Made by a program: the position numbers and the translations under genes. DNA of 32,880 nt from a virus (taxonomy: Duplodnaviria > Heunggongvirae > Uroviricota > Caudoviricetes), in IMG/VR virus record IMGVR_UViG_2548876695_000022, positions 1 to 32,880 of that record. The stretch is one strand, 5' to 3'. How positions within the stretch are numbered: the first letter of the stretch is position 1; each line of letters starts with the position of its first letter. Shown here one piece after another: positions 8,838 through 28,366 of the stretch. The notes below the pieces were generated by a model. It did not search any database, was not told the origin of the DNA, and saw nothing but the letters and a program-made list of their open reading frames with translations.

Positions 8838-9267
8838 TATTGCTGTCGTCTGGGATCAGGGTTGCGGTTCCCTGCAACTGAACGGCGCAGATCTTCTGAC
8901 GGATAACAGCCTGCTGACTGCGGTCATTATTTCACTGTTTACGGACAGGCGGGCGCTGGATTCCGATGAAATCCCTGACGGCACCCGTGACCGTCGGGGA
9001 TGGTGGGGAGACAGTTTCCGGGAGCGCCCCGTTGGCTCCCGTCTCTGGCTGTTAAGCCGTGAAAAGACGCTGTCCTCCGTGGTCAGCCGTGCACAGGCCT
9101 ATGCTGATGAAGCGCTGGCGTGGCTGCATAAAAGCGGTGCTGCCACATCCGTGGTATGTCATGCCATGCGTGTGGGGCATGCTCGCCTTTCGCTTTCCGT
9201 GAAAATCACCCTGCCGGACGGAAGCAGACATCCGATGATTTTTTATGCTGATATGAAGGGGGAATGA
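8830..9267 (+). CDS. gp46 / gp25-like baseplate wedge protein
   Basis: Start placed at the internal ATG (8830) with a GGGAGG RBS, giving ~145 aa; the ORF track start at 8617 would overlap the upstream gene in-frame. Confidence 0.6.
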   Translation: MADIAVVWDQGCGSLQLNGADLLTDNSLLTAVIISLFTDRRALDSDEIPDGTRDRRGWWGDSFRERPVGSRLWLLSREKTLSSVVSRAQAYADEALAWLHKSGAATSVVCHAMRVGHARLSLSVKITLPDGSRHPMIFYADMKGE

Positions 9268-10349
9268 TGCCTTATCAGCCCTTACCACTGGCGCAACTGA
9301 TCACACAGACACAACAGGATATCAGCCAGCGCCTGCCCGGTTCGCAGCCGGGCGTGAATGAAACCACCCTGAATGCCATTGCGTATGCACTGGCGGGTCT
9401 GTCAGCACAGGAGCATGAACATCTGGCCTGGATCTCCCGGCAGATAATTCCGACAGAAGCTGATGAAGCCGAACTCCTGAAACACTGCGCATTCTGGGGT
9501 GTCATCCGTAAACCGGCTTCCCGCGCTGACGGACCGGTACAACTGATGCTGACCACGGATGCAGGGATCACGGAAGGCGTACTCCTTCAGCGAAGCGATG
9601 GGGTTGTGTACCGCATCACCGGCTCTGCGACCGGAAAAGCCGGAACACTGAATGTTAATGTGGAGGCGGAAAGTGCGGGGCGCGCTGGAAATACCCCGAC
9701 CGGAACCCGCCTGTCCTTTATCACGCCACAGGCGGGCATCAACCAGACAGCCACGGTCACCGGCACGGGACTCACCGGTGGTGCGGATGTGGAAACGGTG
9801 CCGGAGTTGCTGTCCAGGCTGGTATTCCGGGTACAGAACCCGCCATCAGGGGGAACACAGTATGATTTTGAACGCTGGGCACGGGAAGTACCGGGCGTGA
9901 CGCGGGCATGGTGTAAGCCTGAATGGCCTGAGGCGGGTAGTGTTGGTGTGACTTTTGTTCAGGATAATAACCCTGACATTTTCCCCGGAGAAGGTGATGT
10001 GAAGCGGGTGGCGGATTATATCCGCAGTCATGATGATCCGGCGACGGGCCAGCCCGTTGGTCAGCCACTTGGGCCGACAATCAGCGTGTTTAAGCTGACC
10101 AATAAGCCGGTGGCGTTTGAGATCAGGATTGTACCCAAAACGCCGGAAAATCAGGCTGCCGTAAAACAGGCATTAACGGACCTGCTTTATAACGAATCGC
10201 GGCCGGGTGGACTTGTATTGCCTTCATCATTCTGGCGGGCTGTTGCAGGGGTGAAAGGACTGGAGGATTTTGAAGTTCGCAGCCCGCTGAAGTCCGTGAT
10301 GGCCGGAGATACAGAGTTGCTGACCGTGGGGGAAATCACATGGCTGTAA
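9264..10349 (+). CDS. baseplate J-like protein (Mu gp47)
   Basis: 361-aa ORF overlapping the upstream stop; size and position match baseplate J-family proteins. Confidence 0.7.
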   Translation: MMPYQPLPLAQLITQTQQDISQRLPGSQPGVNETTLNAIAYALAGLSAQEHEHLAWISRQIIPTEADEAELLKHCAFWGVIRKPASRADGPVQLMLTTDAGITEGVLLQRSDGVVYRITGSATGKAGTLNVNVEAESAGRAGNTPTGTRLSFITPQAGINQTATVTGTGLTGGADVETVPELLSRLVFRVQNPPSGGTQYDFERWAREVPGVTRAWCKPEWPEAGSVGVTFVQDNNPDIFPGEGDVKRVADYIRSHDDPATGQPVGQPLGPTISVFKLTNKPVAFEIRIVPKTPENQAAVKQALTDLLYNESRPGGLVLPSSFWRAVAGVKGLEDFEVRSPLKSVMAGDTELLTVGEITWL

Positions 10350-10900
10350 CCCTGACCCCGCATCAGCGTGCCCTGTTGCAGTTGCTGCCTGACGGGCTGG
10401 CATGGGATAAGCGGCCGTCATCCGTTCTTGCGGCTTTGTGCCTGGGCCTCAGTCATTCCACGGAGCGTGTTTCCTGGACCGGTAACCAGATGCTGGCAGA
10501 ACGTTTTCCTGATTCATCCCGTCTGCTGCTGGAAGACTGGGAGCGTTATCTGGGGTTACCGGAATGTGATATGACCGGCGCAACCATTCAGGAGCGTCAG
10601 CGTTATGCCGGGAATAAATACCGGATGAAACCCTCTCTTAACCGTGAATTTTATATCCGGTTTGCGGCAGAGTTTGGTTATGAAATAGATATTCAGCCAT
10701 CACCGGATTCACAGTGGGTCAGTATTGTCACGATTAACAGTGAAACCGGCTACCGGAATATGAATGTGCTGGATGATATTCTCACGCCGCTGCGTATTTA
10801 TGAAGGCGGTGCGCTGGAATGTATTCTGAACCGTTATAAGCCTGCATGGCAGACGTTTATTTACGTGTATGCAAACAGCCATGAAGAGGAGACTATTTAA
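10340..10900 (+). CDS. tail/baseplate protein (Mu gp48, P2 gpI-like)
   Basis: 186-aa ORF between the J-like gene and the tail fibre gene, as in the Mu and P2 baseplate operons. Confidence 0.6.
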
Positions 10901-11811
10901 TGTTTCATGTTGATAATAATTCCGGCGTGGCGAATATGCCTGCGCTGGCACCGGCGCAGAGTAATACCACCACCTGGTTTACCGAAGGTGACGGACAAAA
11001 AGGTATCAGCTGGATTGGTCAGGACTGGCTGAATATTCTCCAGGCCGAACTGCTGAATATTCTGGCTGAAGCCAGTATTCAGCCGGATAAGGCGCAGTTA
11101 AACCAGCTTACGCTGTCTATTAAAGCCATTATCGCTGCGAATGCTTTTTCCCGGAAAAATAACCTGAAAGAAATTGCTGATGCCGGTGCGGAGGCCCAGC
11201 GTCTGGCCCGTGGTTATCTTGGTCTGGGGACGCTTGCCACAAAAAACAGTCTTGGTCCCGGTGACGTTAATGCCCTGGCGAAGGATCAGAATCTCGCCGA
11301 CCTGGAGAATAAGGGAACCGCCCGTAATAATCTGGATGTTTACAGCAAGAGCGAAGGTGATAACCGTTACCTGCGCAGGGACCAGAATGGCGCAGACATT
11401 CCGGATAAAGGCGCTTTTATCGATAACGTCGGTTTACGGGAAACGGTAAATAAGGCTGCTGATGCCCTGCCATCGGGTGGAACCGCCGTGGCAGCAAACA
11501 GACTCGCCACCCCAAAAAATATTAATGGCGTTCCTTTTGACGGAACGCAGGATATCAACATCACGTCAGGAATGACGCAGTCAACCGCAGATGGCCGGTA
11601 TGTACAGAATGTTCAGCTTGGAGCACAGAGCTATCATTCACCCGGAGGCAATGAAATATCATGGAATTACAGCGCACCTTCCGGTTGTATGCTTTCCGGT
11701 ATTAACGTGCAGGAAACCGGCTCCCGGTCTGCGGACAATATCGGTGGGGTCTATTATCGCCCGGTTCAGATTTATATTAATAATGCCTGGAGAACGGTAA
11801 GTTCAGTGTAA
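10900..11811 (+). CDS. tail fibre protein S (constant N-terminal part joined to the variable C-terminus in the current orientation)
   Basis: 303-aa ORF; its last ~125 aa parallel an inverted cassette on the - strand (12447-12809), with a gix-like crossover site inside codon V177. Confidence 0.8.
11417..11442. other. gix-like Gin recombination site (left boundary of invertible segment)
   Basis: TTATCGATAACGTCGGTTTACGGGAA; its reverse complement TTCCCGTAAACC-GA-CGTTATCGATAA matches the gix/hix consensus half-site; the 13-bp core TCGGTTTACGGGA recurs inverted at 12793-12805. Confidence 0.6.
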
Positions 11812-11821
11812 ACCACAGAAA

Positions 11822-11840
11822 AGGGTGCTGAATGCACCCT
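11822..11840. terminator. bidirectional hairpin between convergent S and U' genes
   Basis: AGGGTGC-tgaat-GCACCCT 7-bp stem; a T-rich tract follows on the - strand (TTTTCTGTGG). Confidence 0.45.
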
Positions 11841-11845
11841 CTGAA

Positions 11846-12367
11846 TTATTCCGGTTTTTCCGGCCAGGGAATCGCCTGGTAATGCCCCTCACTGGCAATA
11901 TCATTAAAGTGCATTTCTTTAAGCTGTCGGATATACGCCATCCAGCGCGTCAGCTGTAATTTATTTTCATCGCTAATCATGTCCAGTTTTAATTCTGTTT
12001 TCCAGTCATCCACGGTTTCGTTGGCTTCCTGGAGCAGCGATGAGCGACGCTTTTCAGCAACCGTCTTCCAGTTTACCGGCACCTTTGATATCAGGCCATC
12101 AGAAAACTGCCAGTTACCGTCAATATTCACACCTTCCGGCAGTTCGTCCACTTCAACAACAGTAAAACCTGCCGGATATAAAGCAGAGACATCTTCAGCA
12201 ACAGAGCAGATAATACCCGTTACAGGCGAAATACAGAGTTTGTATTTCTTTGTGAAAAGCGGGATAGATTCATAAAAATCCCTTCCGTCCTCACTCTGGA
12301 AATACTGAACATCCTCACCATAGGGTTTGTGTTCCGGGTAATATCGTTTTACGTTAATAAGCTCCAT
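11846..12367 (-). CDS. tail fibre assembly chaperone (Mu U-like; U' of the inverted set)
   Basis: Start placed at the internal Met (MELINVKRYYPEHKPYGED...) with an AAGGTG RBS; C-terminal ISDENKLQLTRWMAYIRQL pattern typical of Mu U/Tfa proteins; the ORF track extends to 12478. Confidence 0.8.
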   Translation of the reverse strand: MELINVKRYYPEHKPYGEDVQYFQSEDGRDFYESIPLFTKKYKLCISPVTGIICSVAEDVSALYPAGFTVVEVDELPEGVNIDGNWQFSDGLISKVPVNWKTVAEKRRSSLLQEANETVDDWKTELKLDMISDENKLQLTRWMAYIRQLKEMHFNDIASEGHYQAIPWPEKPE

Positions 12368-12446
12368 TATTTCACCTTGTTTTTGTTGAAAAGACAAAAT
12401 CATCATATATTTATTCAGATAATCTGTTTTTTGAACTACTGCACTT

Positions 12447-12809
12447 TTATGCGCTGGAAGCTGTTTTCCACGAACCATCTATCAGAAACTGAACAGGTCG
12501 ATAATATGCGGTTACCGTTGCATTACCATCACCAGCGACATCAAGCCCTGTAAGTACGCATCCGTCAGGAACCTCAAAAATATTATATTGCATTCCAATC
12601 GTTGACCTTGAACCTCTTCGAATGCTTTGAACATAACGTGAGTCAGCCACAGACTGCGTCATCCCCGATGTAATATTTATATCCTGCGTTCCGTCAAATG
12701 GGACACCATTAATATTTCTTGGAGTGGCGAGTTTATTCGCTGCAACAGCCGCTCCGTTCGATGGCAGGGCATTCGCGGCCCTGTTTACAGTATCCCGTAA
12801 ACCGAGGTT
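12447..12809 (-). CDS. promoterless alternative tail-fibre C-terminal cassette (S'v)
   Basis: The - strand frame is open from the gix-like site (stop at 12810-12812) and encodes NLGLRDTVNRAANALP...[22 protein letters not shown]...YYRPVQFLIDGSWKTASSA, paralleling the C-terminus of S; it has no start codon of its own at the 5' end. Confidence 0.7.
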   Translation of the reverse strand, partial: NLGLRDTVNRAANALPSNGAAVAANKLATPRNINGVPFDGTQDINITSGMTQSVADSRYVQSIRRGSRSTIGMQYNIFEVPDGCVLTGLDVAGDGNATVTAYYRPVQFLIDGSWKTASSA

Positions 12810-12817
12810 TCAGGGAT
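12792..12817. other. gix-like Gin recombination site (right boundary)
   Basis: ATCCCGTAAACC-GA-GGTTTCAGGGAT: near-perfect dyad around a central GA; core GTAAACCGAGGTTT matches the gix/hix consensus. Confidence 0.65.
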
Positions 12818-12871
12818 GCCGTATATCTGTTTTAAAAGGCATTTTCACCTCTTTTTAAGGAAGGTAAATAC

Positions 12872-13432
12872 ATGCTGATTGGCTATATACGCGTATCAAC
12901 AAATGACCAGAACACAGGTTTACAAAGAAATGCGCTGGAATGTGCAGGATGTGAGCAGATTTTTGAAGATAAAATGAGTGGTAAAACGACACAGCGGCCG
13001 GGACTGAAGCGGGCACTGAAGAAACTAAAACCCGGTGACACACTGATGGTCTGGAAACTGGACAGGCTGGGGCGCAGTATGCGCCACCTTGTTGCGCTGA
13101 CAGATGAATTACAGCAACAGGGGATAAATTTTCGTAGTCTTACTGACAACATTGATACGTCAACCCCCATGGGGCGCTTCTTTTTTCACATAATGGGTGC
13201 GCTGGCAGAAATGGAGCGTGAATTAATTGTCGAACGGACACGGGCTGGTCTTGCAGCTGCCCGTGAAAGGGGACGAACCGGCGGCAGACCCCGTCGTCTC
13301 ACGCAGGAACAATACGAGCAGGTCGGGCGTTTACTGGCCGGGGGTGTCAGTCGAAGACAGGTGGCACTTATTTTTGATATCGGCCTTTCAACCCTTTATC
13401 GTTATTATCCTGCGAGCGTTTCGGAAAAATAA
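12872..13432 (+). CDS. gin: serine DNA invertase (Gin/Hin/Pin/Cin family)
   Basis: 186-aa protein MLIGYIRVSTNDQNTGLQRNALECAGCEQIFEDK...RLGRSMRHL...GRPRRLTQEQYEQ, near-identical in pattern to Mu Gin including the catalytic Ser region and C-terminal HTH; AAGGAAGG RBS. Confidence 0.9.
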   Translation: MLIGYIRVSTNDQNTGLQRNALECAGCEQIFEDKMSGKTTQRPGLKRALKKLKPGDTLMVWKLDRLGRSMRHLVALTDELQQQGINFRSLTDNIDTSTPMGRFFFHIMGALAEMERELIVERTRAGLAAARERGRTGGRPRRLTQEQYEQVGRLLAGGVSRRQVALIFDIGLSTLYRYYPASVSEK

Positions 13433-13522: not shown

Positions 13523-15580
13523 ATGAATATTATGACGTCCAAATGGGTTCAACTATCATCAATGCCCGGAAACTTTACCGTTAAAGTTTCCGGTGGTACA
13601 GCGGCATTTCTTGAGGCTCCCTTTCCTCCTGCTGAAACGAAAGGAGGAATGACATTTGCTGACTGTCTCATCAGTTTTAATACACAGGATTGCCTGTGGG
13701 TAAGGCCAGTATCCGGTGATCCGAACGTGGAAATTACCGGAGCGGGTATTGGTGCTGTCATTCCGTTAAGTGCTGATGTTGCCGGTACTGCTGAACCGTC
13801 AGACTGGGATAATGCAGAAACACATACCCGTCCGGCAGGAAATGAAACGGCTTCCAGCTCCCCTTCCTGGTATTACGTGATTGTTATAGCCGGCCAGTCC
13901 AATGCTTCATCTTATGGTGAAGGGTTGCCCCTTCCGGATTCTTATGATCGTCCTGATCCACGTATTATGCAGCTGGCACGCAGGAATACACAAACCCCCG
14001 GAGGTATTCCCTGCAAATACAATGAAATCATTCCAGCAGATCACTGCCTTCATGATGTTCAGAATATGAGTCTGCTGAACCATCCAAAAGCAGACCTGAA
14101 AAAAGGGCAGTATGGTTGTGTGGGGCAGGGACTTCATATTGCGAAAAAAGTATTACCGGTGATTCCTGCTGATGCCGGGATTTTACTGGTTCCCTGTGCC
14201 CGTGGCGGCTCTGCTTTTACAACCGGCGCAGTTGGCTCATTCGATCCGGCAAGTGGTGCAGCCGAGGCGTCACTACGCTGGGGAGTGGATACCCCACTGT
14301 ATCAGGATCTTGTCAGTCGAACTAAAGCGGCACTTGAGGCGAATCCAAAGAATGTGCTGTTATCTGTCGTATGGATTCAGGGGGAAGGAGACCTTAAAGC
14401 GACCCCGGCCCAGCATGGTGCCCAGTTTACTGCGATGGTGAAAAAATTCCGTGCGGATCTTGGTGCTTTCTCCGGTCAGTGTATTGGTGGTTCATCAGAC
14501 AGTGTGCCGTGGTTATGTGGTGACACAACCTATGACTGGAAAGAGAAGAACCCGGCGGCATATGAAACCATTTATAGCGGATATAAAAACCGGGCTTCCG
14601 AGAACATTCACTTTGTTCCACTGATGCACGATGAGTTCGGTAATAAAACCGCGACCAACCTGCCGGAGCACGACCCGGATATCGCTTCTGCCGGGTATTA
14701 TGGTGCGGAATCACGGGGAGATGGCAACTGGACAACAGCATCCAGGGCAACCCATTTTAGCTCCTGGGCGCGCCGTTTTCTGGTCTCAGATCGTTTTGCA
14801 TCAGCAATTCTTAAATATGCAGGTCTGACCTCTGCATTTATTGCCGGTGTGGCCCCTGATGGTGAAGCCCTGCCTCAGCCCGCGCCGGGTGGGAAACCGG
14901 AAGCGCCGACAGGTAGTCAGCCAGGAGGCAGTGAGTCCCCCCATCCGACATCCCCGTCACTCCGTACGCTGCTTTCACTTAAAGCATCAGCAGGAGAAGC
15001 CCCGGCTCAGGGCTGGAAAATTACAGATGGTACAATCCAGCTGACGGACGAAGGTAAAGCGTTGACCGTATCCAAACAAAGCGGAAAAACCTGGACGCTT
15101 ACCCATGGAACTGATGCAGCCGGTGAACTTCTGAAGCATGGTGGTCAGTTGACCTGTAAATTCCGTCTGTCAGGTGAAGTAAAAGAAGGCCAGTTTGCTC
15201 TGGGTATTTACCTCCACACCGATACGGTCCCGGAAGGTGTAACCATGAGTGGTACAGGCACACCGTTCCTGATGGCGTATTATCTCCAGACAACAGGCGG
15301 CCAGTTAAATCTGATGCACCATAAAACAGGGGGGAATACGAAACTGGGATCATTTGGAGCCTACAATAACCAGTGGCATACACTTGTCCTGAAGTTTACG
15401 GCGGGAAGTGCCCAGGTAACGCCTGTGCTGGATGGCACTCCGGGCCAGGCATTCCAGATGGTGAAAGATGCACTTTCCCCTGCCAAAGATACGCTGACAC
15501 TGACAGATGTCACCAAAGGGGCAACTTATGGCGTGTCTTTTGAGAGCGTTGTCCTTGAGGTTAATACCCCTGCGGCATAA
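13523..15580 (+). CDS. SASA/SGNH-family carbohydrate O-acetylesterase with C-terminal lectin-like domain (prophage cargo, NanS-p-like)
   Basis: 685 aa; motifs VIVIAGQSNASSYGEG and VVWIQGEGD typical of sialate O-acetylesterase (SASA) domains; Pro/Gly-rich linker then a beta-rich C-terminal domain; no signal peptide. Confidence 0.55.
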   Translation: MNIMTSKWVQLSSMPGNFTVKVSGGTAAFLEAPFPPAETKGGMTFADCLISFNTQDCLWVRPVSGDPNVEITGAGIGAVIPLSADVAGTAEPSDWDNAETHTRPAGNETASSSPSWYYVIVIAGQSNASSYGEGLPLPDSYDRPDPRIMQLARRNTQTPGGIPCKYNEIIPADHCLHDVQNMSLLNHPKADLKKGQYGCVGQGLHIAKKVLPVIPADAGILLVPCARGGSAFTTGAVGSFDPASGAAEASLRWGVDTPLYQDLVSRTKAALEANPKNVLLSVVWIQGEGDLKATPAQHGAQFTAMVKKFRADLGAFSGQCIGGSSDSVPWLCGDTTYDWKEKNPAAYETIYSGYKNRASENIHFVPLMHDEFGNKTATNLPEHDPDIASAGYYGAESRGDGNWTTASRATHFSSWARRFLVSDRFASAILKYAGLTSAFIAGVAPDGEALPQPAPGGKPEAPTGSQPGGSESPHPTSPSLRTLLSLKASAGEAPAQGWKITDGTIQLTDEGKALTVSKQSGKTWTLTHGTDAAGELLKHGGQLTCKFRLSGEVKEGQFALGIYLHTDTVPEGVTMSGTGTPFLMAYYLQTTGGQLNLMHHKTGGNTKLGSFGAYNNQWHTLVLKFTAGSAQVTPVLDGTPGQAFQMVKDALSPAKDTLTLTDVTKGATYGVSFESVVLEVNTPAA

Positions 15581-16713: not shown

Positions 16714-16914
16714 ATGTATCGAAACATACGGTGCCGACACTGCAATAAGCTACTGGCACGGGCCAGTTTCAGTTATCTGGAAGTAAAATGTCCGCGCTGT
16801 AAAACCCTCAATCAAATCACATCTCCGAGCGCCACAGAGCACCCCACATACACAAGGAAATCCTGTCGTGGGGAACAGAAAGCAAGTCACATCCCGTATC
16901 ATCAGCACGCCTGA
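16714..16914 (+). CDS. com: Com zinc-finger translational activator of mom
   Basis: [35 protein letters not shown] matches the Mu Com zinc-finger pattern (IRCKNCNKLL...CPRCK); the 3' end overlaps the downstream gene as in Mu. Confidence 0.8.
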
Positions 16915-17605
16915 ACTTATTCGCTATAACGACAATATCGTTGGTTATGGCTCCCGTGAGTTGCGGGTTGAGACAATAAGTTGCTGGCTGGCCAGACTGG
17001 TTATCGTCAATAAACATTACAGCCACCGTTTCGTAAATAATTCCTACCTTCATCTGGGTATATTTTCAGAACGGGAACTTGTTGGCGTAATGCAATGGGG
17101 TTACGCCCTTAACCCAAACAGTGGTGCACGCGTCGTAACGGGTACGCAGAACCGAGAATATATGGAGCTTAACCGGCTATGGATGCATGACTGTATGCCG
17201 AGAAACTCCGAATCAAGGGCAATCAGTTACGCGCTCAAGCTAATCAGGCAGCTTTATCCGCAGGTACAGTGGGTTCAGTCGTTTGCAGATGAGCGTTGTG
17301 GCTGTCTTGGTGTCGTGTATCAGGCCAGCAATTTTGATTATGTAGGCAGCCATGAATCAACATTCTATGAACTTGATGGCGAGTGGTATCACGAGATTTG
17401 CAGGAGTGCCATTAAACGAGGCGGACAACGAGGTGAACATCTGAGGGCTAATATCGACAGAGCCAGTGTGCATAAGTTCCGACAGTTTCGTTACATCCGG
17501 TTTCTGAACAAGAGGGCCAGAAAACGCCTCAACACAAAGCTATTCAAAGTCCACCCTTACCCAAAACCACAAACAGTTAAAACTGGTTTGAAAGAGAGTG
17601 AATGA
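16868..17605 (+). CDS. mom: Mom DNA-modification (anti-restriction) protein
   Basis: 245-aa ORF with GTG start overlapping com, in the Mu position after gin; the com-mom pairing is diagnostic. Confidence 0.75.
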
Positions 17606-17644
17606 GCGCTTAAAAACTCATTCTAAAACTCAAAAGAAAAGCGC

Positions 17645-17725
17645 CGATTTAGTATCAAATAAGTTGCGTATCGGCGTTTTTCAGCGGTATCAAATGAAAT
17701 GCAAATCGGTATCAAAAAAATCGCC
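17645..17725. repeat. three direct repeats (G)GTATCAAA in the mom-distal intergenic region
   Basis: Copies start at 17652, 17686 and 17708, plus GTATCGG at 17668; candidate transposase end-binding sites of the Mu-like element or an operator for the downstream operon. Confidence 0.4.
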
Positions 17726-17747
17726 GCGCTATAAACAGCTAAAGCAG

Positions 17748-18404
17748 ATGCGGGAAACGCTGGCAAAAGCTGACCTTCCCCCGCGTAAGCGCCAGCGCCT
17801 TTTATGGCGTATTGCAAAGCTGGGCATTGTCGCAGCGGCAAAACGTCACCAGCGCCAGCAGGCGGCCCCGGACGGTACGCCGTGGGAGCCGCGCAAGCGT
17901 GGCAAAGGGAAGATGTTAAAAGGGCTGCCCAAGCTGTTGGCCGTGCGCGAAATGCCGGAGATTCAGGGGGTAAGAATTTACCTCAAGGGCGGGAACTACC
18001 GGAACGGGACGAAGCCCATCGCGGCGGGTCTGGTCGGCGCGGTCCAGCAGGACGGCGCACGGATCCAGATGAAAGCCAGTAACGCCCCGCGTAAGCCGCA
18101 GGCTGACAAGCCAGCGCTACCGCGACAGGCCAAGCGTCTGCGGGCGCTGGGTTACAAAACCCGCAAGGGCAAACGCTGGGTTAAGCCGTCCAGCAAGCAA
18201 ATCATGGAAACCATGAGCATGGCCCAGGCGGGATTACTGATTCGAAAACTGAAAGGCACACCCTCAAAACGCACATGGACCATTGATATTCCTGGGCGCG
18301 TTTTTCTGGGGGTGAGCAACGACGAATTTAACCAAATTATTGCGCGGCAAATGCAGGCAATCGGCTTCGGCTGGGACGTCAACGCGCAGCAAATCAGGGG
18401 GTAA
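17748..18404 (+). CDS. virion morphogenesis / tail completion protein (P2 gpS / Mu G-like)
   Basis: Pattern RKRQRLLWRIAK...QQAAPDGTPWEPRKRGKG...IPGRVFLGVSNDEF resembles the gpS-type tail completion family; start uncertain (ORF track begins with GTG at 17598; ATG at 17748 chosen, no strong RBS). Confidence 0.45.
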   Translation: MRETLAKADLPPRKRQRLLWRIAKLGIVAAAKRHQRQQAAPDGTPWEPRKRGKGKMLKGLPKLLAVREMPEIQGVRIYLKGGNYRNGTKPIAAGLVGAVQQDGARIQMKASNAPRKPQADKPALPRQAKRLRALGYKTRKGKRWVKPSSKQIMETMSMAQAGLLIRKLKGTPSKRTWTIDIPGRVFLGVSNDEFNQIIARQMQAIGFGWDVNAQQIRG

Positions 18405-25814: not shown

Positions 25815-27779
25815 ATGTCACAGGCCGTCATTACAAAAGCATTTGCAGAGTGGAAAGCCCAGCAGGCAATTAATAACCAGCCCGTCACGCTGGATGAGTT
25901 TATTTTTGCTTATATTCCGGGGCTGGATGCTGACAAGCCGATTAATAATACTGAAACAACGCCAGCGGAAGATAAAATAGTTTGTCGTCAGGCGGTGAAT
26001 AAAGCCGGTGTTGTGAATGAAAACTCTGTCGTTTATTCCGTTACCCTGGGGGCGGATGTGGGCGATTTTGATTTCAACTGGATCGGGCTGGCAAATAAGG
26101 CAACGGGTACACTGGCGATGATTATTCACGCCCCGACCCAACGAAAAATTAAAAACGCAGACGGTCAGCAGGGAAACGTTCTTGTTCGTTCCATGCTGAT
26201 GGAATACAGCGGAGCCAGGGAAGCGACCGAAATTAACACTCCGGCAGAGACATGGCAGATTGATTTTACTGCCCGACTGGTGGGAATGGATGAACGCCAG
26301 CGCCGGGAAAATATCGATCTGTATGGCGCAGCGGCATTTTTTGATTCGGGCTATCTGGTCGCAAAGTCCGGCAATCAGTTTTTTGTCACAAAGGGGGCGG
26401 GATATGTCGCCGGATTGCGTGCCGAATTGCCCGCAAACTTCAATATCACAGTATCCGCGAAACCGACAAAAATCTGGCTTGATGTGAGCTGGACCGGGAC
26501 GTTAACAAGCGAATGGGCTGTACAGAGCAAAATTACTGTTGCTGCAGATCTTGCCGATTATGTGCTGGGCGGTGTGCAGCATTATGTCTTTGCGGTGGCG
26601 AGTATTGATGCTGCCGGAAATATCACTGACCTGCGCCCGAAAGGCACGCTAAATGACCAGGCGGCCAGCGATGCGCTGAAAAAGCATGAACAATCCCGAA
26701 ATCACCCTGATGCATCAACCAGTGAAAAGGGTTTTGTGCGGTTAAGCAGTGAAACGAACAGTGATTCCGAAGCGATGGCCGTCACGCCAAAAGCATTAAA
26801 AGCGGTGAATGAGAATGCAAATGGCCGCGTTCCGGCATCACGAAAAGTGAACGGCCATGCCCTGAATGGAGATATCAATGTCACTTCACGGGATATTTTT
26901 GACGGCCAGGTTATAGCGATTGGTGCAAATAAGAATCTGGATGATTACCAGGTACCGGGGCTTTATTTTCAGGAAGCGAACAACAATACCAGTGCAGCAA
27001 TGAATTACCCGGAGAATAGCGCGGGTTCTCTGATGGTACTGAGAGGTGCCGGAGTCACTCAGGTTTATCGTGTGTACAACAGCTCGCGCAGTTATTCGCG
27101 CAGCAAGTATTCAACGCTGGCATGGACGCCGTGGATGCCAGAAGATTCTTACCCTGTCGGCGCACCTATCCCCTGGCCATCGGATGTTACCCCGACAGGG
27201 TACGCCTTAATGCAGGGGCAGCCCTTTGATAAAGCGGTCTATCCATTGCTAGCGATTGCCTATCCTGCGGGGATTATCCCGGACATGCGAGGCCAGACGA
27301 TTAAGGGTAAACCGAACGGTCGCGCGGTACTCTCGTATGAACAGGATGGTGTTATATCGCATACCCACGGAGCCAGTATTTCCGATACCGATTTGGGGAC
27401 GAAATACACCAGCTCTTTTGATTATGGTTCAAAACCAACAACCAGTTTTGACTACGGCAATAAATCCTCCACTGAGGGTGGGTGGCACGCACATAACTTT
27501 CGTTATTGCGCAACGTCTGCATACCGGGATACCCCCGGTCAGGGGCTGGGGATGCATTCGTCTAATGTTTCATGGGCGGCGGGAGATCGCATTGAGGGAA
27601 GCGGTAATCATGCTCATGTGACATGGATCGGCCCTCATGATCACTGGGTGGGTATTGGTGCGCATAACCATTATGTGGTTATGGGCTATCACGGACATAC
27701 AGCGACCGTTCATGCCGCAGGAAATGCGGAAAATACCGTTAAAAATATTGCGTTTAACTACATTGTGAGGCTTGCCTGA
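25815..27779 (+). CDS. tail fibre protein (P2 gpH-like)
   Basis: 654 aa; [52 protein letters not shown] matches the conserved P2 H motif (EHEQSRRHPDAS...KGFTQLSSATNSTSETLAATPKAVK); His-rich C-terminal region. Confidence 0.8.
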
Positions 27780-28366
27780 TGACTTTTGAAATGACCGGAG
27801 AAAACCGGACAATTACCATCTATAACCTGCGTGCTGATACAAATGAATTTATCGGGAAAAGTGATGGGTTTATCCCTGCTAATACCGGTTTGCCTGCTAA
27901 CAGTACCAATATTGCGCCACCGCCGATGAAAGCCGGTTTTGTCGCTGTATTTAATTCTGCGTCAGAAAAATGGTCACTTGTTGAAGACCATCGCGGGAAA
28001 ATTGTTTACGACATTCTCACCGGGAAATCCATCACGATTGATGAATTAGGTCAGTTACCTGACGACGTTGTTTCCGTTGCGCCGGAAGGCCATTTTGTTA
28101 AATGGAATGGTAAAAAATGGGTGCATGATGCTGACGCAGAAAAAACGGCACAGATTACACAGGCTACACAGCAAAAAGACAGTCTTCTGGCGCTGGCTGC
28201 ATCAAAAATTGCCCCATTACAGGATGCTGTTGATCTGGATATTGCAACGGAAGAGGAAACAGCGCTTTTGCTGGCGTGGAAAAAATACAGGGTTTTGATT
28301 AATCGTATTAAGCCAGAAGATGCGCCAGATATTGACTGGCCGGAGGTTCCGGGCGATGTGGCGTGA
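27779..28366 (+). CDS. tail fibre assembly chaperone (lambda Tfa / P2 gpG-like)
   Basis: 195 aa, [26 protein letters not shown]...GLPANSTNIAPP...ALLLAWKKYRVLINRIKPEDAPDIDWPEVP, highly characteristic of Tfa proteins; ATG overlaps the fibre stop. Confidence 0.85.
   Translation: MTFEMTGENRTITIYNLRADTNEFIGKSDGFIPANTGLPANSTNIAPPPMKAGFVAVFNSASEKWSLVEDHRGKIVYDILTGKSITIDELGQLPDDVVSVAPEGHFVKWNGKKWVHDADAEKTAQITQATQQKDSLLALAASKIAPLQDAVDLDIATEEETALLLAWKKYRVLINRIKPEDAPDIDWPEVPGDVA

Follow-up and report, generated by a model that had tools for sequence, protein, structure and literature searches.

The window analysed here, the whole 32,880 nucleotides of IMG/VR virus record IMGVR_UViG_2548876695_000022 (positions 1 to 32,880), contains the right end of an Sp18-family, Mu-like prophage, and within it an invertible segment that provides the tail-fibre gene S with two alternative 3' ends and a single gene, tfa, for an assembly chaperone. 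We are highly confident that the Gin-type switch of this segment is active and that its one-chaperone design is conserved among relatives. The comparisons also suggested that the one chaperone may be shared by both orientations, for which we judge the chances to be about even or slightly worse, and the whole explanation that includes this step falls a little short of even. The host range of a phage is set by its fibre tips and their chaperones, which are also the components replaced in the re-targeting of phages and tailocins. The picture drawn from Mu, P2 and lambda is that each tip has its own co-transcribed Tfa, whose N-terminal domain is specific for that tip. Several unrelated tips served by one Tfa gene would imply either a generalist Tfa with orientation-independent expression or tips that need no chaperone, and both outcomes bear on fibre engineering.

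The segment and its immediate neighbours were resolved into the following features.

9264-10349 and 10340-10900: genes 5' of S, encoding Baseplate_J and a Mu gp48-like protein, respectively.
10900-11811, plus strand: full open reading frame (ORF) of S, 303 aa, ending in Sv.
10900..11428, plus strand: Sc, the constant 5' part of S (codons 1-176), joinable to either variable end.
11417-11442: left crossover site gixL, TTATCGATAACG TC GGTTTACGGGAA, with the crossover dinucleotide at 11429-11430.
11425..11606: left arm of an inverted repeat, encoding the GLRETVN... stretch common to both cassettes (repeat search and cassette alignment).
11431..11811, plus strand: Sv, the variable end now expressed, with an A-type tip; stop codon 11809-11811.
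11820..11842: G+C-rich hairpin AGGGTGC-loop-GCACCCT between the converging stops (terminator scan of the minus strand, and folding).
12367 to 11846, minus strand: tfa, the sole chaperone gene in the segment, T-type, 173 aa.
12368..12446, minus strand: A+T-rich untranslated spacer of 79 nt, from the Sv' stop to the tfa start.
12809 to 12447, minus strand: Sv', the silent alternative end, with a B-type tip, in frame with Sc once inverted.
12792-12817: right crossover site gixR, ATCCCGTAAACC GA GGTTTCAGGGAT, with the crossover dinucleotide at 12804-12805.
12872..13432, plus strand: DNA invertase, a serine recombinase of the Gin/Pin/Cin group, 186 aa, adjoining the segment.

An initial annotation of the window had proposed inverted gix-like sites with a perfect 13-bp core around a segment of about 1.37 kb, and 26-bp sites were indeed found, with a crossover-to-crossover distance of 1375 bp. 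The 13-mer TCGGTTTACGGGA, which contains the TC dinucleotide and is shared by both inverted sites, had zero-mismatch copies in the 32.9-kb window only at 11429-11441 (plus strand) and 12793-12805 (minus strand). The reverse complement of gixR reads ATCCCTGAAACC TC GGTTTACGGGAT; compared with Mu gix, TTATCCAAAACC TC GGTTTACAGGAA, gixL agreed at 22 of 26 positions and gixR at 19 of 26, and the central TC was identical. Both sites lay at the outer ends of an inverted repeat of 182 nt, 78% complementary (11425-11606 / 12628-12809). The adjoining invertase matched Pfam Resolvase (E 1.4e-51) and HTH_7 (E 1.7e-14), PHROG 125 (DNA invertase) and the Mu Gin structure 3uj3 (E 2.3e-91 over residues 1-182); its N-terminus, MLIGYIRVSTNDQ, has Ser at position 9 in an RVST motif, and a helix-turn-helix lies at its C-terminus. 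As the invertase coding sequence is highly similar to gin, a Fis-dependent recombinational enhancer within its 5' part is plausible.

The assignment of one C-terminal domain to S, and of an alternative end plus one U-like chaperone to the minus strand, was likewise correct in position. S residues 1-198 resembled the Mu tail fibre S (PDB 5yvq_A, E 5.9e-49), residues 228-302 resembled Mu S tip residues 434-503, and the Sv tip was 61-68% identical to P2-like and Rac-like fibre tips. The tfa product was recognised by Pfam Caudo_TAP (PF02413, E 1.9e-18, score 67.3 against a cut-off of 22.1 bits), by PHROG 136 (E 6e-58) and by similarity to Mu U (PDB 5yvq_B, E 1.8e-15). The segment is asymmetric as had been claimed, with a single chaperone gene and none downstream of the currently expressed fibre.

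The Gin-family invertase recombines the two inverted gix sites and flips the 1375-bp segment, acting as a host-range switch. By inversion, Sc is fused either to Sv (A-type, the present state) or to Sv' (B-type). When the sequence was flipped in silico at the central dinucleotide, an uninterrupted Sc-Sv' ORF of 293 aa was obtained with tfa behind it, and protein databases contained both products, of 303 aa and of 293-298 aa, the latter being abundant. The sequence flipped in silico occurs unbroken in real E. coli genomes alongside the unflipped one, which indicates that the switch works. Among 5426 complete E. coli genomes, counted where at least 80% of a 2.5-kb query was covered, the present orientation was found in 182 and the flipped orientation in 25; clonal O157:H7 genomes inflate these counts, and their ratio should not be over-read. 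The flipped isomer was matched over its full length, in one piece and at up to 99.8% identity, including in O157:H7 strains, and the O157:H7 clone-mates of flipped strains held the opposite orientation. The Sp18-type loci in IMG/VR were divided into 11 in the present orientation and 4 flipped, and strain SMN197SH3 carried two copies in opposite orientations. Insertion-site flanks could be recovered for only five or six loci (4 in the present orientation, 2 flipped), too few for a conclusion. The proposal of a Gin-type invertible fibre segment was thus borne out by the Gin homologue, the Mu-type gix sites and the occurrence of both orientations; the case in which only one orientation is ever seen did not arise, as both are common in public genomes.

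No third isomer was seen among the inspected E. coli and IMG/VR loci. An extra gix site by which tfa alone could be flipped was also considered and rejected, as the sole internal match with no more than 3 mismatches (12344-12356, inside tfa) was within chance expectation.

Orientation polymorphism leads to mis-annotation of the fibre gene. The automatic annotations of our loci L001, L002 and L025 (window equivalent 12447-12900) illustrate this. Flipped genomes had no full-length Sc-Sv' gene call; called instead were a 67-aa "tail fiber protein", an opposite-strand "hypothetical protein" and a silent-cassette pseudogene. A 61-aa "hypothetical protein" spanning gixR was also called. Locus L002, from strain SMN197SH3 (NZ_CP024056.1, 1-8533), is a second, truncated and flipped copy of the module that lies between a tyrosine integrase and dusA and retains part of gp46, Baseplate_J, YmfQ, S, tfa, the invertase and part of the esterase gene; the full-length prophage elsewhere in the same genome is in the other orientation.

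The presence of a single chaperone gene was a property of the whole group. Eight allelic variants from complete genomes and then about 22 loci from IMG/VR and protein-context look-ups were surveyed, and three modules were compared: tfa, the cassette that converges on it and the cassette upstream of it. Exactly one tfa was found in every Sp18-type segment surveyed (about 30), comprising the window, 9 further E. coli loci, 4 loci from protein contexts and about 19 from IMG/VR. In six aligned alleles the converging stops were 32-35 nt apart and enclosed the same stem, AGGGTGC/GCACCCT, with different loops, and the divergence among the allele types was large (synonymous divergence, dS, of about 1.6 to saturation for tfa and of 0.4 to saturation for Sv). 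The same layout was found in Mu-like prophages of Citrobacter braakii (L004) and Salmonella (L114), in which the expressed end converges on a lone DUF4376 chaperone-like gene; the C. braakii locus had three gix sites, three tips and one DUF4376 gene, and the Salmonella locus one DUF4376 gene and one silent cassette.

These relatives bear directly on the idea that the segment arose recently from a Mu-like Sv-U / U'-Sv' arrangement by deletion of U, which we consider extremely unlikely. Two tfa genes are present in Mu, D108, SfMu and the E. coli Mu-like prophage of FDAARGOS_1059, and a two-tfa segment (L022) exists within the Sp18 family itself, as such a derivation would lead one to expect. Against it, the hairpin in the 32-35 nt gap is conserved even though tfa and Sv alleles differ at dS >1, the same layout recurs in Salmonella and Citrobacter with a different chaperone family, and L022 carries unrelated tip types; because its two tips are of the unrelated Collar and Gp53-like types, L022 is not the precursor. 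In the window, the 34 nt between the Sv stop and the tfa stop are occupied by the hairpin, which is terminator-like on the tfa strand and weaker on the S strand, and there is therefore neither a second chaperone nor room for a remnant of one. The initial annotation had suggested a search for a deleted U at 11812-11845; that interval proved to be the hairpin, its stem kept in all alleles examined, and a deleted U is unsupported, given that deeply diverged alleles and different genera keep the same layout. As far as sequence comparison can show it, the single chaperone is a conserved design rather than a loss. A chaperone gene that had simply been missed was not found either, as a search of the whole window with hidden Markov models (HMMs) and tblastn gave one other Tfa-like gene (27779-28366), which belongs to a different, neighbouring prophage. 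A hidden chaperone antisense to tfa (a 98-aa ORF at 11979-12275, with 130 codons open) was rejected, since stop codons interrupt it in alleles T2 and T3.

The asymmetry is genuine and is less unusual than had been implied, as IMG/VR also contains single-tfa segments from other phage families. Among the 51 IMG/VR loci in which a Gin-like invertase (at least 73% identical) had 3 kb or more of sequence upstream, two convergent tfa genes were present in 18 and one in 25, and 8 had none detectable by HMM. Outside the Sp18 family, L095 had one Caudo_TAP gene and one reversed Collar-type cassette without a Caudo_TAP gene of its own, and L084 had one Caudo_TAP gene and two such cassettes; in both, tfa was co-directional with the currently expressed fibre end. 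At L061 and L089, the reversed cassette was followed by a small ORF without a Pfam match, which may be another kind of chaperone. A layout with fewer chaperones than tips is thus, in the sequences compared, a recurring one: L084, L095, L004 and L114 share with the window a Gin/Pin-type region with fewer chaperone genes than alternative ends, and differ from it in their fibre and tip families. The Min region of plasmid p15B, with its multiple cassettes, is an old example of many alternative ends.

The finding is incremental, as the element and its invertibility have been published and single-tfa segments exist in other phages; the inversion mechanism itself is of the ordinary Gin type. The arrangement seen across these sequences, namely a tail-to-tail core of tip, hairpin and chaperone, a variable slot upstream, and a chaperone type that matches the convergent tip, seems not to have been pointed out before. 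The window belongs to the same element family as Sp18 of E. coli O157:H7 Sakai, and its segment is 98.9-99.1% identical to O157:H7 copies; unlike Sp18, the window copy lies at another insertion site, inside a different prophage. Asadulghani et al. (2009) noted the invertible region of Sp18 as atypical, scored its host-specificity function as "(+), atypical", and reported that Sp18 DNA was efficiently packaged and that Mu-like particles were seen by electron microscopy (PMC2669165). In the text consulted, their paper makes no mention of a layout with one chaperone, of orientation polymorphism or of the types of tip and chaperone.

The closest well-studied counterpart is the G segment of Mu with Gin (also D108 and SfMu). 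As in Mu, the window has a homologous Sc (S residues 1-198) and tip fold, a Gin-homologous invertase that borders the segment on its right, beyond which lie com and mom, and 26-bp gix sites with the same TC core around an alternative 3' end on the opposite strand. The Mu segment is 3059 bp long and holds Sv-U and U'-Sv', with each tfa 2 nt after its fibre end; the window segment, in contrast, is 1375 bp long and has one tfa, a 79-nt spacer and a hairpin in place of the second tfa. The window fibre is about 200 aa shorter than that of Mu, and a cargo gene with sialate-esterase and DUF6645 domains lies between the invertase and com/mom. The rule of the Mu G segment that each fibre end has its own tfa was followed neither in the window nor in the about 30 related segments. 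A Caudo_TAP gene normally lies immediately after the fibre it serves; here, this is the case only for Sv' after inversion, with a 79-nt gap, and not for Sv.

The P segment of e14 with Pin, and L022, share with the window a short fibre gene that comes after a YmfQ (Mu gp48-like) gene and whose 3' end is switched by a Pin/Gin-type invertase. L022 is closer still, with an Sc 96% identical to that of the window and the same invertase and esterase. Unlike the window, e14 and L022 have two convergent tfa genes, and their tips are of the Collar and Gp53-like_C types. The e14 P segment measures 1797 bp (PMC12529663).

The absence of a chaperone gene downstream of Sv could mean that the present orientation is an OFF or defective state in which Sc-Sv fibres fail without a co-transcribed chaperone, and mutants of Mu in U are without fibres, in line with such a reading. 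The Sv tip, in turn, was intact in all of the about 30 loci, with a ratio of nonsynonymous to synonymous divergence (dN/dS) of 0.05-0.22 in all informative allele pairs over a dS of 0.4 to saturation, and the Sv orientation was the majority (182 against 25 genomes, 11 against 4 IMG/VR loci) and was seen at different insertion sites. Non-functional fibres, one of three options in the initial annotation, are disfavoured by this purifying selection on Sv and by its being the commoner orientation, and we consider an OFF state very unlikely.

If Sv fibres are functional, the source of their chaperone becomes the central question, and the types of tip and Tfa provided a partial answer. The cassette convergent with tfa was an A-family tip in every locus, 85-100% identical in most and about 46% identical in a diverged subgroup; one common signature is carried by the main and the diverged subgroups. 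In other E. coli prophages that are not invertible, three of which were found (L016, L115 and L116), an A-type tip is followed, after a gap of 2-14 nt, by a co-directional T-type Tfa:

Rac-SA53: tip 68% identical to Sv, gap 2 nt, Tfa 53% identical overall.
Mu-baseplate-type prophage of strain B1172: tip 61% identical to Sv, gap 14 nt, Tfa 60% identical overall.
Lambdoid side fibre of strain E500002: tip 61% identical to Sv, gap 14 nt, Tfa 54% identical overall.

The N-terminal half of the Rac-SA53 Tfa was 66-73% identical to that of the window. The nearest phage relatives of the other tip types were accompanied by different chaperones: the B-type tip was nearest to that of Hafnia phage yong1 (53%), which lies upstream of a U-like Tfa whose N-terminal half is 32% identical to the window Tfa, and the C-type tip was nearest to Mu S (59%), with Mu U and U' 28-31% identical to the window Tfa overall. 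Because A-type tips elsewhere precede a T-type Tfa by 2-14 nt, the single tfa appears to be cognate to the A-type Sv tip on which it converges, and by the same comparison non-cognate to the tips with which it is co-transcribed. When the Tfa N-domain alone was used for a protein search, all hits were truncated fragments and gave no gene context.

In the TfaMu-fibre structure, as summarised in PMC9608196, a variable N-domain binds the tip and conserved C-terminal helices drive trimerisation. In the T1-T3 alleles, the N-half of Tfa was 72-85% identical and the C-half 46-60%, so that in these alleles the conservation of the Sp18-type Tfa is reversed relative to the usual pattern; a better-kept fibre-binding half is in keeping with a Tfa cognate to Sv.

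The module of an A-type tip with a T-type Tfa is common to Mu-like, Rac-like/lambdoid side-fibre and Mu-baseplate-type prophages of E. coli, a sharing that is, judging from the similarities, horizontal module exchange across phage families. In Mu itself (L118, 1676-2765), U and U' are 56% identical overall while the S and S' tips are 36% identical, and by eye the N-terminal, fibre-binding parts of U and U' are much more alike than their C-terminal thirds. The two chaperones of Mu may therefore be partly redundant, which would make a one-chaperone variant less of a leap.

Supply of Tfa in trans, whether from other resident prophages or from sister copies flipped during replicative transposition, is a further way in which Sv could obtain a chaperone, and borrowing had been another of the three options first put forward. 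Enterohaemorrhagic E. coli (EHEC) strains are rich in prophages with tfa, the window itself has a second Caudo_TAP gene (27779-28366), in some genomes the segment is present twice, once in each orientation, and complementation between prophages has been documented in O157 (PMC2669165). However, the T-type N-domain was found in 346 of the 5426 E. coli genomes (6%), mostly within the Sp18-type element itself, and the Tfa of the neighbouring prophage is of another type and matches the window Tfa only in its C-terminal part. Inversion of G in Mu is also slow relative to a single lytic cycle. TfaMu remains on the virion (PMC9608196), which implies a stoichiometric need for which rare flipped copies would be insufficient. 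Borrowing is thus not a general solution, and we consider it improbable.

The slot upstream of tfa was as variable as the convergent cassette was constant in type. It was occupied by no fewer than four tip types (B to E), dissimilar to one another, and the tfa type remained T whatever the type of the upstream tip. Type B cassettes were nearly identical (dS 0.02-0.04) on backbones with far-apart tfa alleles, and the slot has therefore been swapped by recent recombination. By comparison, therefore, the A-type tip, the hairpin and the T-type tfa form a conserved tail-to-tail core, with a swappable slot for heterologous tips upstream of tfa. Under the shared-chaperone model, transcription of the late operon would, after inversion, run through Sc-Sv' into tfa. 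The present state would call for a separate minus-strand transcript of tfa that does not depend on the late operon, most likely one from the long A+T-rich spacer or from the silent cassette upstream of tfa. A cognate, orientation-independent tfa for the convergent Sv may thus be an option beyond the three of the initial annotation. In its most general form, one chaperone for many tips, an orientation-independent Tfa would assemble the default A tip and any heterologous tip placed in the slot; we advance this form tentatively, as somewhat less probable than even.

The spacer is where the arrangement departs from ordinary fibre-tfa pairs. In four Sp18 spacer types, the distance between the fibre end and tfa was 51, 79, 120 and 121 nt, and the spacer before the chaperone gene was 108 nt at L113, about 70 nt in Citrobacter and about 90 nt in Salmonella; in nine ordinary fibre-tfa pairs, both Mu pairs (2 nt each) among them, the gap was 0-20 nt. 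From this we infer that the long spacer is a candidate site of orientation-independent tfa expression. The best promoter-like candidate in the silent cassette was TTGACG-N16-TATTAC, a weak one in the Sv' arm. No known RNA families were found in the window.

Several observations weigh against a shared, independently expressed Tfa. A search for a sigma-70 promoter upstream of tfa on the minus strand gave matches of at best 8-9 of 12 positions, with no excess over shuffles, and the four spacer types share little sequence. Comparison by eye, with no formal motif search, showed no motif linking the spacer to the intergenic, putative late-promoter regions that precede the lysis, head and com/mom genes. 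A leftward promoter between gixR and the invertase was considered and set aside: all family members share the stretch between gixR and the start of the invertase gene, and an interval that is unchanged even in L022, with its two chaperones, argues against a special leftward promoter there. Because no convincing promoter was found, the expression of tfa in the present orientation is something we can only infer. The pairing of tip and Tfa was also not strict, as a P2-like phage had an A-like tip (61% identical) with a U-like Tfa. Finally, Sv, tfa and the cis cassettes were all mosaic in their combinations of alleles; strict co-variation of tfa with Sv was an early impression from two loci and was undone by these mosaic alleles.

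Some of the same observations could be taken to mean that the A-type Sv tip folds and trimerises without Tfa, and that tfa serves only the upstream heterologous tips, or caps them as an adhesin, so that inversion would toggle between a chaperone-free and a chaperone-dependent fibre. That Sv needs no chaperone was the remaining option of the initial annotation. It takes the gene order at face value, with tfa co-transcribed only with Sv', and it accords with the failure to find a promoter for tfa in the present orientation, with a layout that is stable across alleles and genera while Sv is under purifying selection, and with the reversed cassettes of L084 and L095, which likewise lack a Caudo_TAP gene of their own. 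On the other side, the three non-invertible prophages keep a T-type Tfa directly after an A-type tip, and the Sv tip shares homology with the tip of Mu S, the part bound by TfaMu in 5yvq (PMC9608196). A tfa needed by the cis tips alone would also be expected to co-vary with them, a U-like Tfa accompanying, for example, the Mu-S-like C tip, and it does not. The option thus survived in weakened form, and we regard a chaperone-free Sv as unlikely, though with an appreciable chance of being correct.

If the reading of one chaperone for many tips is true, the Tfa of Mu-like prophages in Escherichia, Citrobacter and Salmonella would be a generalist with its own promoter, in contrast to the co-transcribed specialist of Mu, P1, P2 and lambda.

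A conserved Met was found in the motif ...ITSGMTQS... at the start of the globular tip in all cassettes, A to E (window 12650-12662, minus strand). The silent cassette, if transcribed, could in principle yield a tip-only protein of about 70 aa, and the weak promoter-like TTGACG-N16-TATTAC lies just upstream of this Met. In e14, a fibre chimera made by inversion is reported to block adsorption of T2 (PMC12529663), and by this comparison a host-side role for a tip-only protein is conceivable.

The left 17.7 kb of the window represented the late region and right end of the Mu-like prophage, which was 99.8% identical to some copies in Shiga toxin-producing E. coli (STEC) from cattle. The gene order was of the Mu type, with Phage_Mu_Gp48, Baseplate_J, S, the invertase and Mom recognised by Pfam, and the annotated copy in strain 13E0780 comprised a Mor-family activator, lysis, head, tail and baseplate genes, S, the invertase and com/mom. 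The flanks of the right end differed in five loci, indicating variable insertion sites, and Mu-like prophages have been reported at different sites in different O157 strains (PMC7430833). For EHEC genomics, the element is thus one that is common in O157 and other STEC and mobile between insertion sites.

Between the invertase and com/mom, a gene at 13523-15580 (plus strand) encodes a protein of 685 aa that combines a sialate O-acetylesterase (SASA) domain with DUF6645 and resembles the NanS-p-type esterases of Shiga toxin phages. It is followed by DUF1378 and DUF826 genes, of kinds characteristic of lambdoid phages. Between about 14335 and 15838, blastn gave no alignment with the 13E0780 allele, a gap that suggests that the cargo of this region may be mosaic.

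The Mu-like prophage ends at about 17733, just past mom (16868-17605). From there to 32880, the window holds the tail module of a different, myovirus-type prophage, with DUF2586, a tape-measure-like PhageMin_Tail protein, Baseplate_J and HP1_ORF34. This other prophage is apparently where the Mu-like element inserted by transposition, beside a truncated Phage_tail_S-like ORF (17598-18404). The second prophage has a 654-aa fibre of its own with a Collar domain (25815-27779), followed by its own Caudo_TAP gene (27779-28366).

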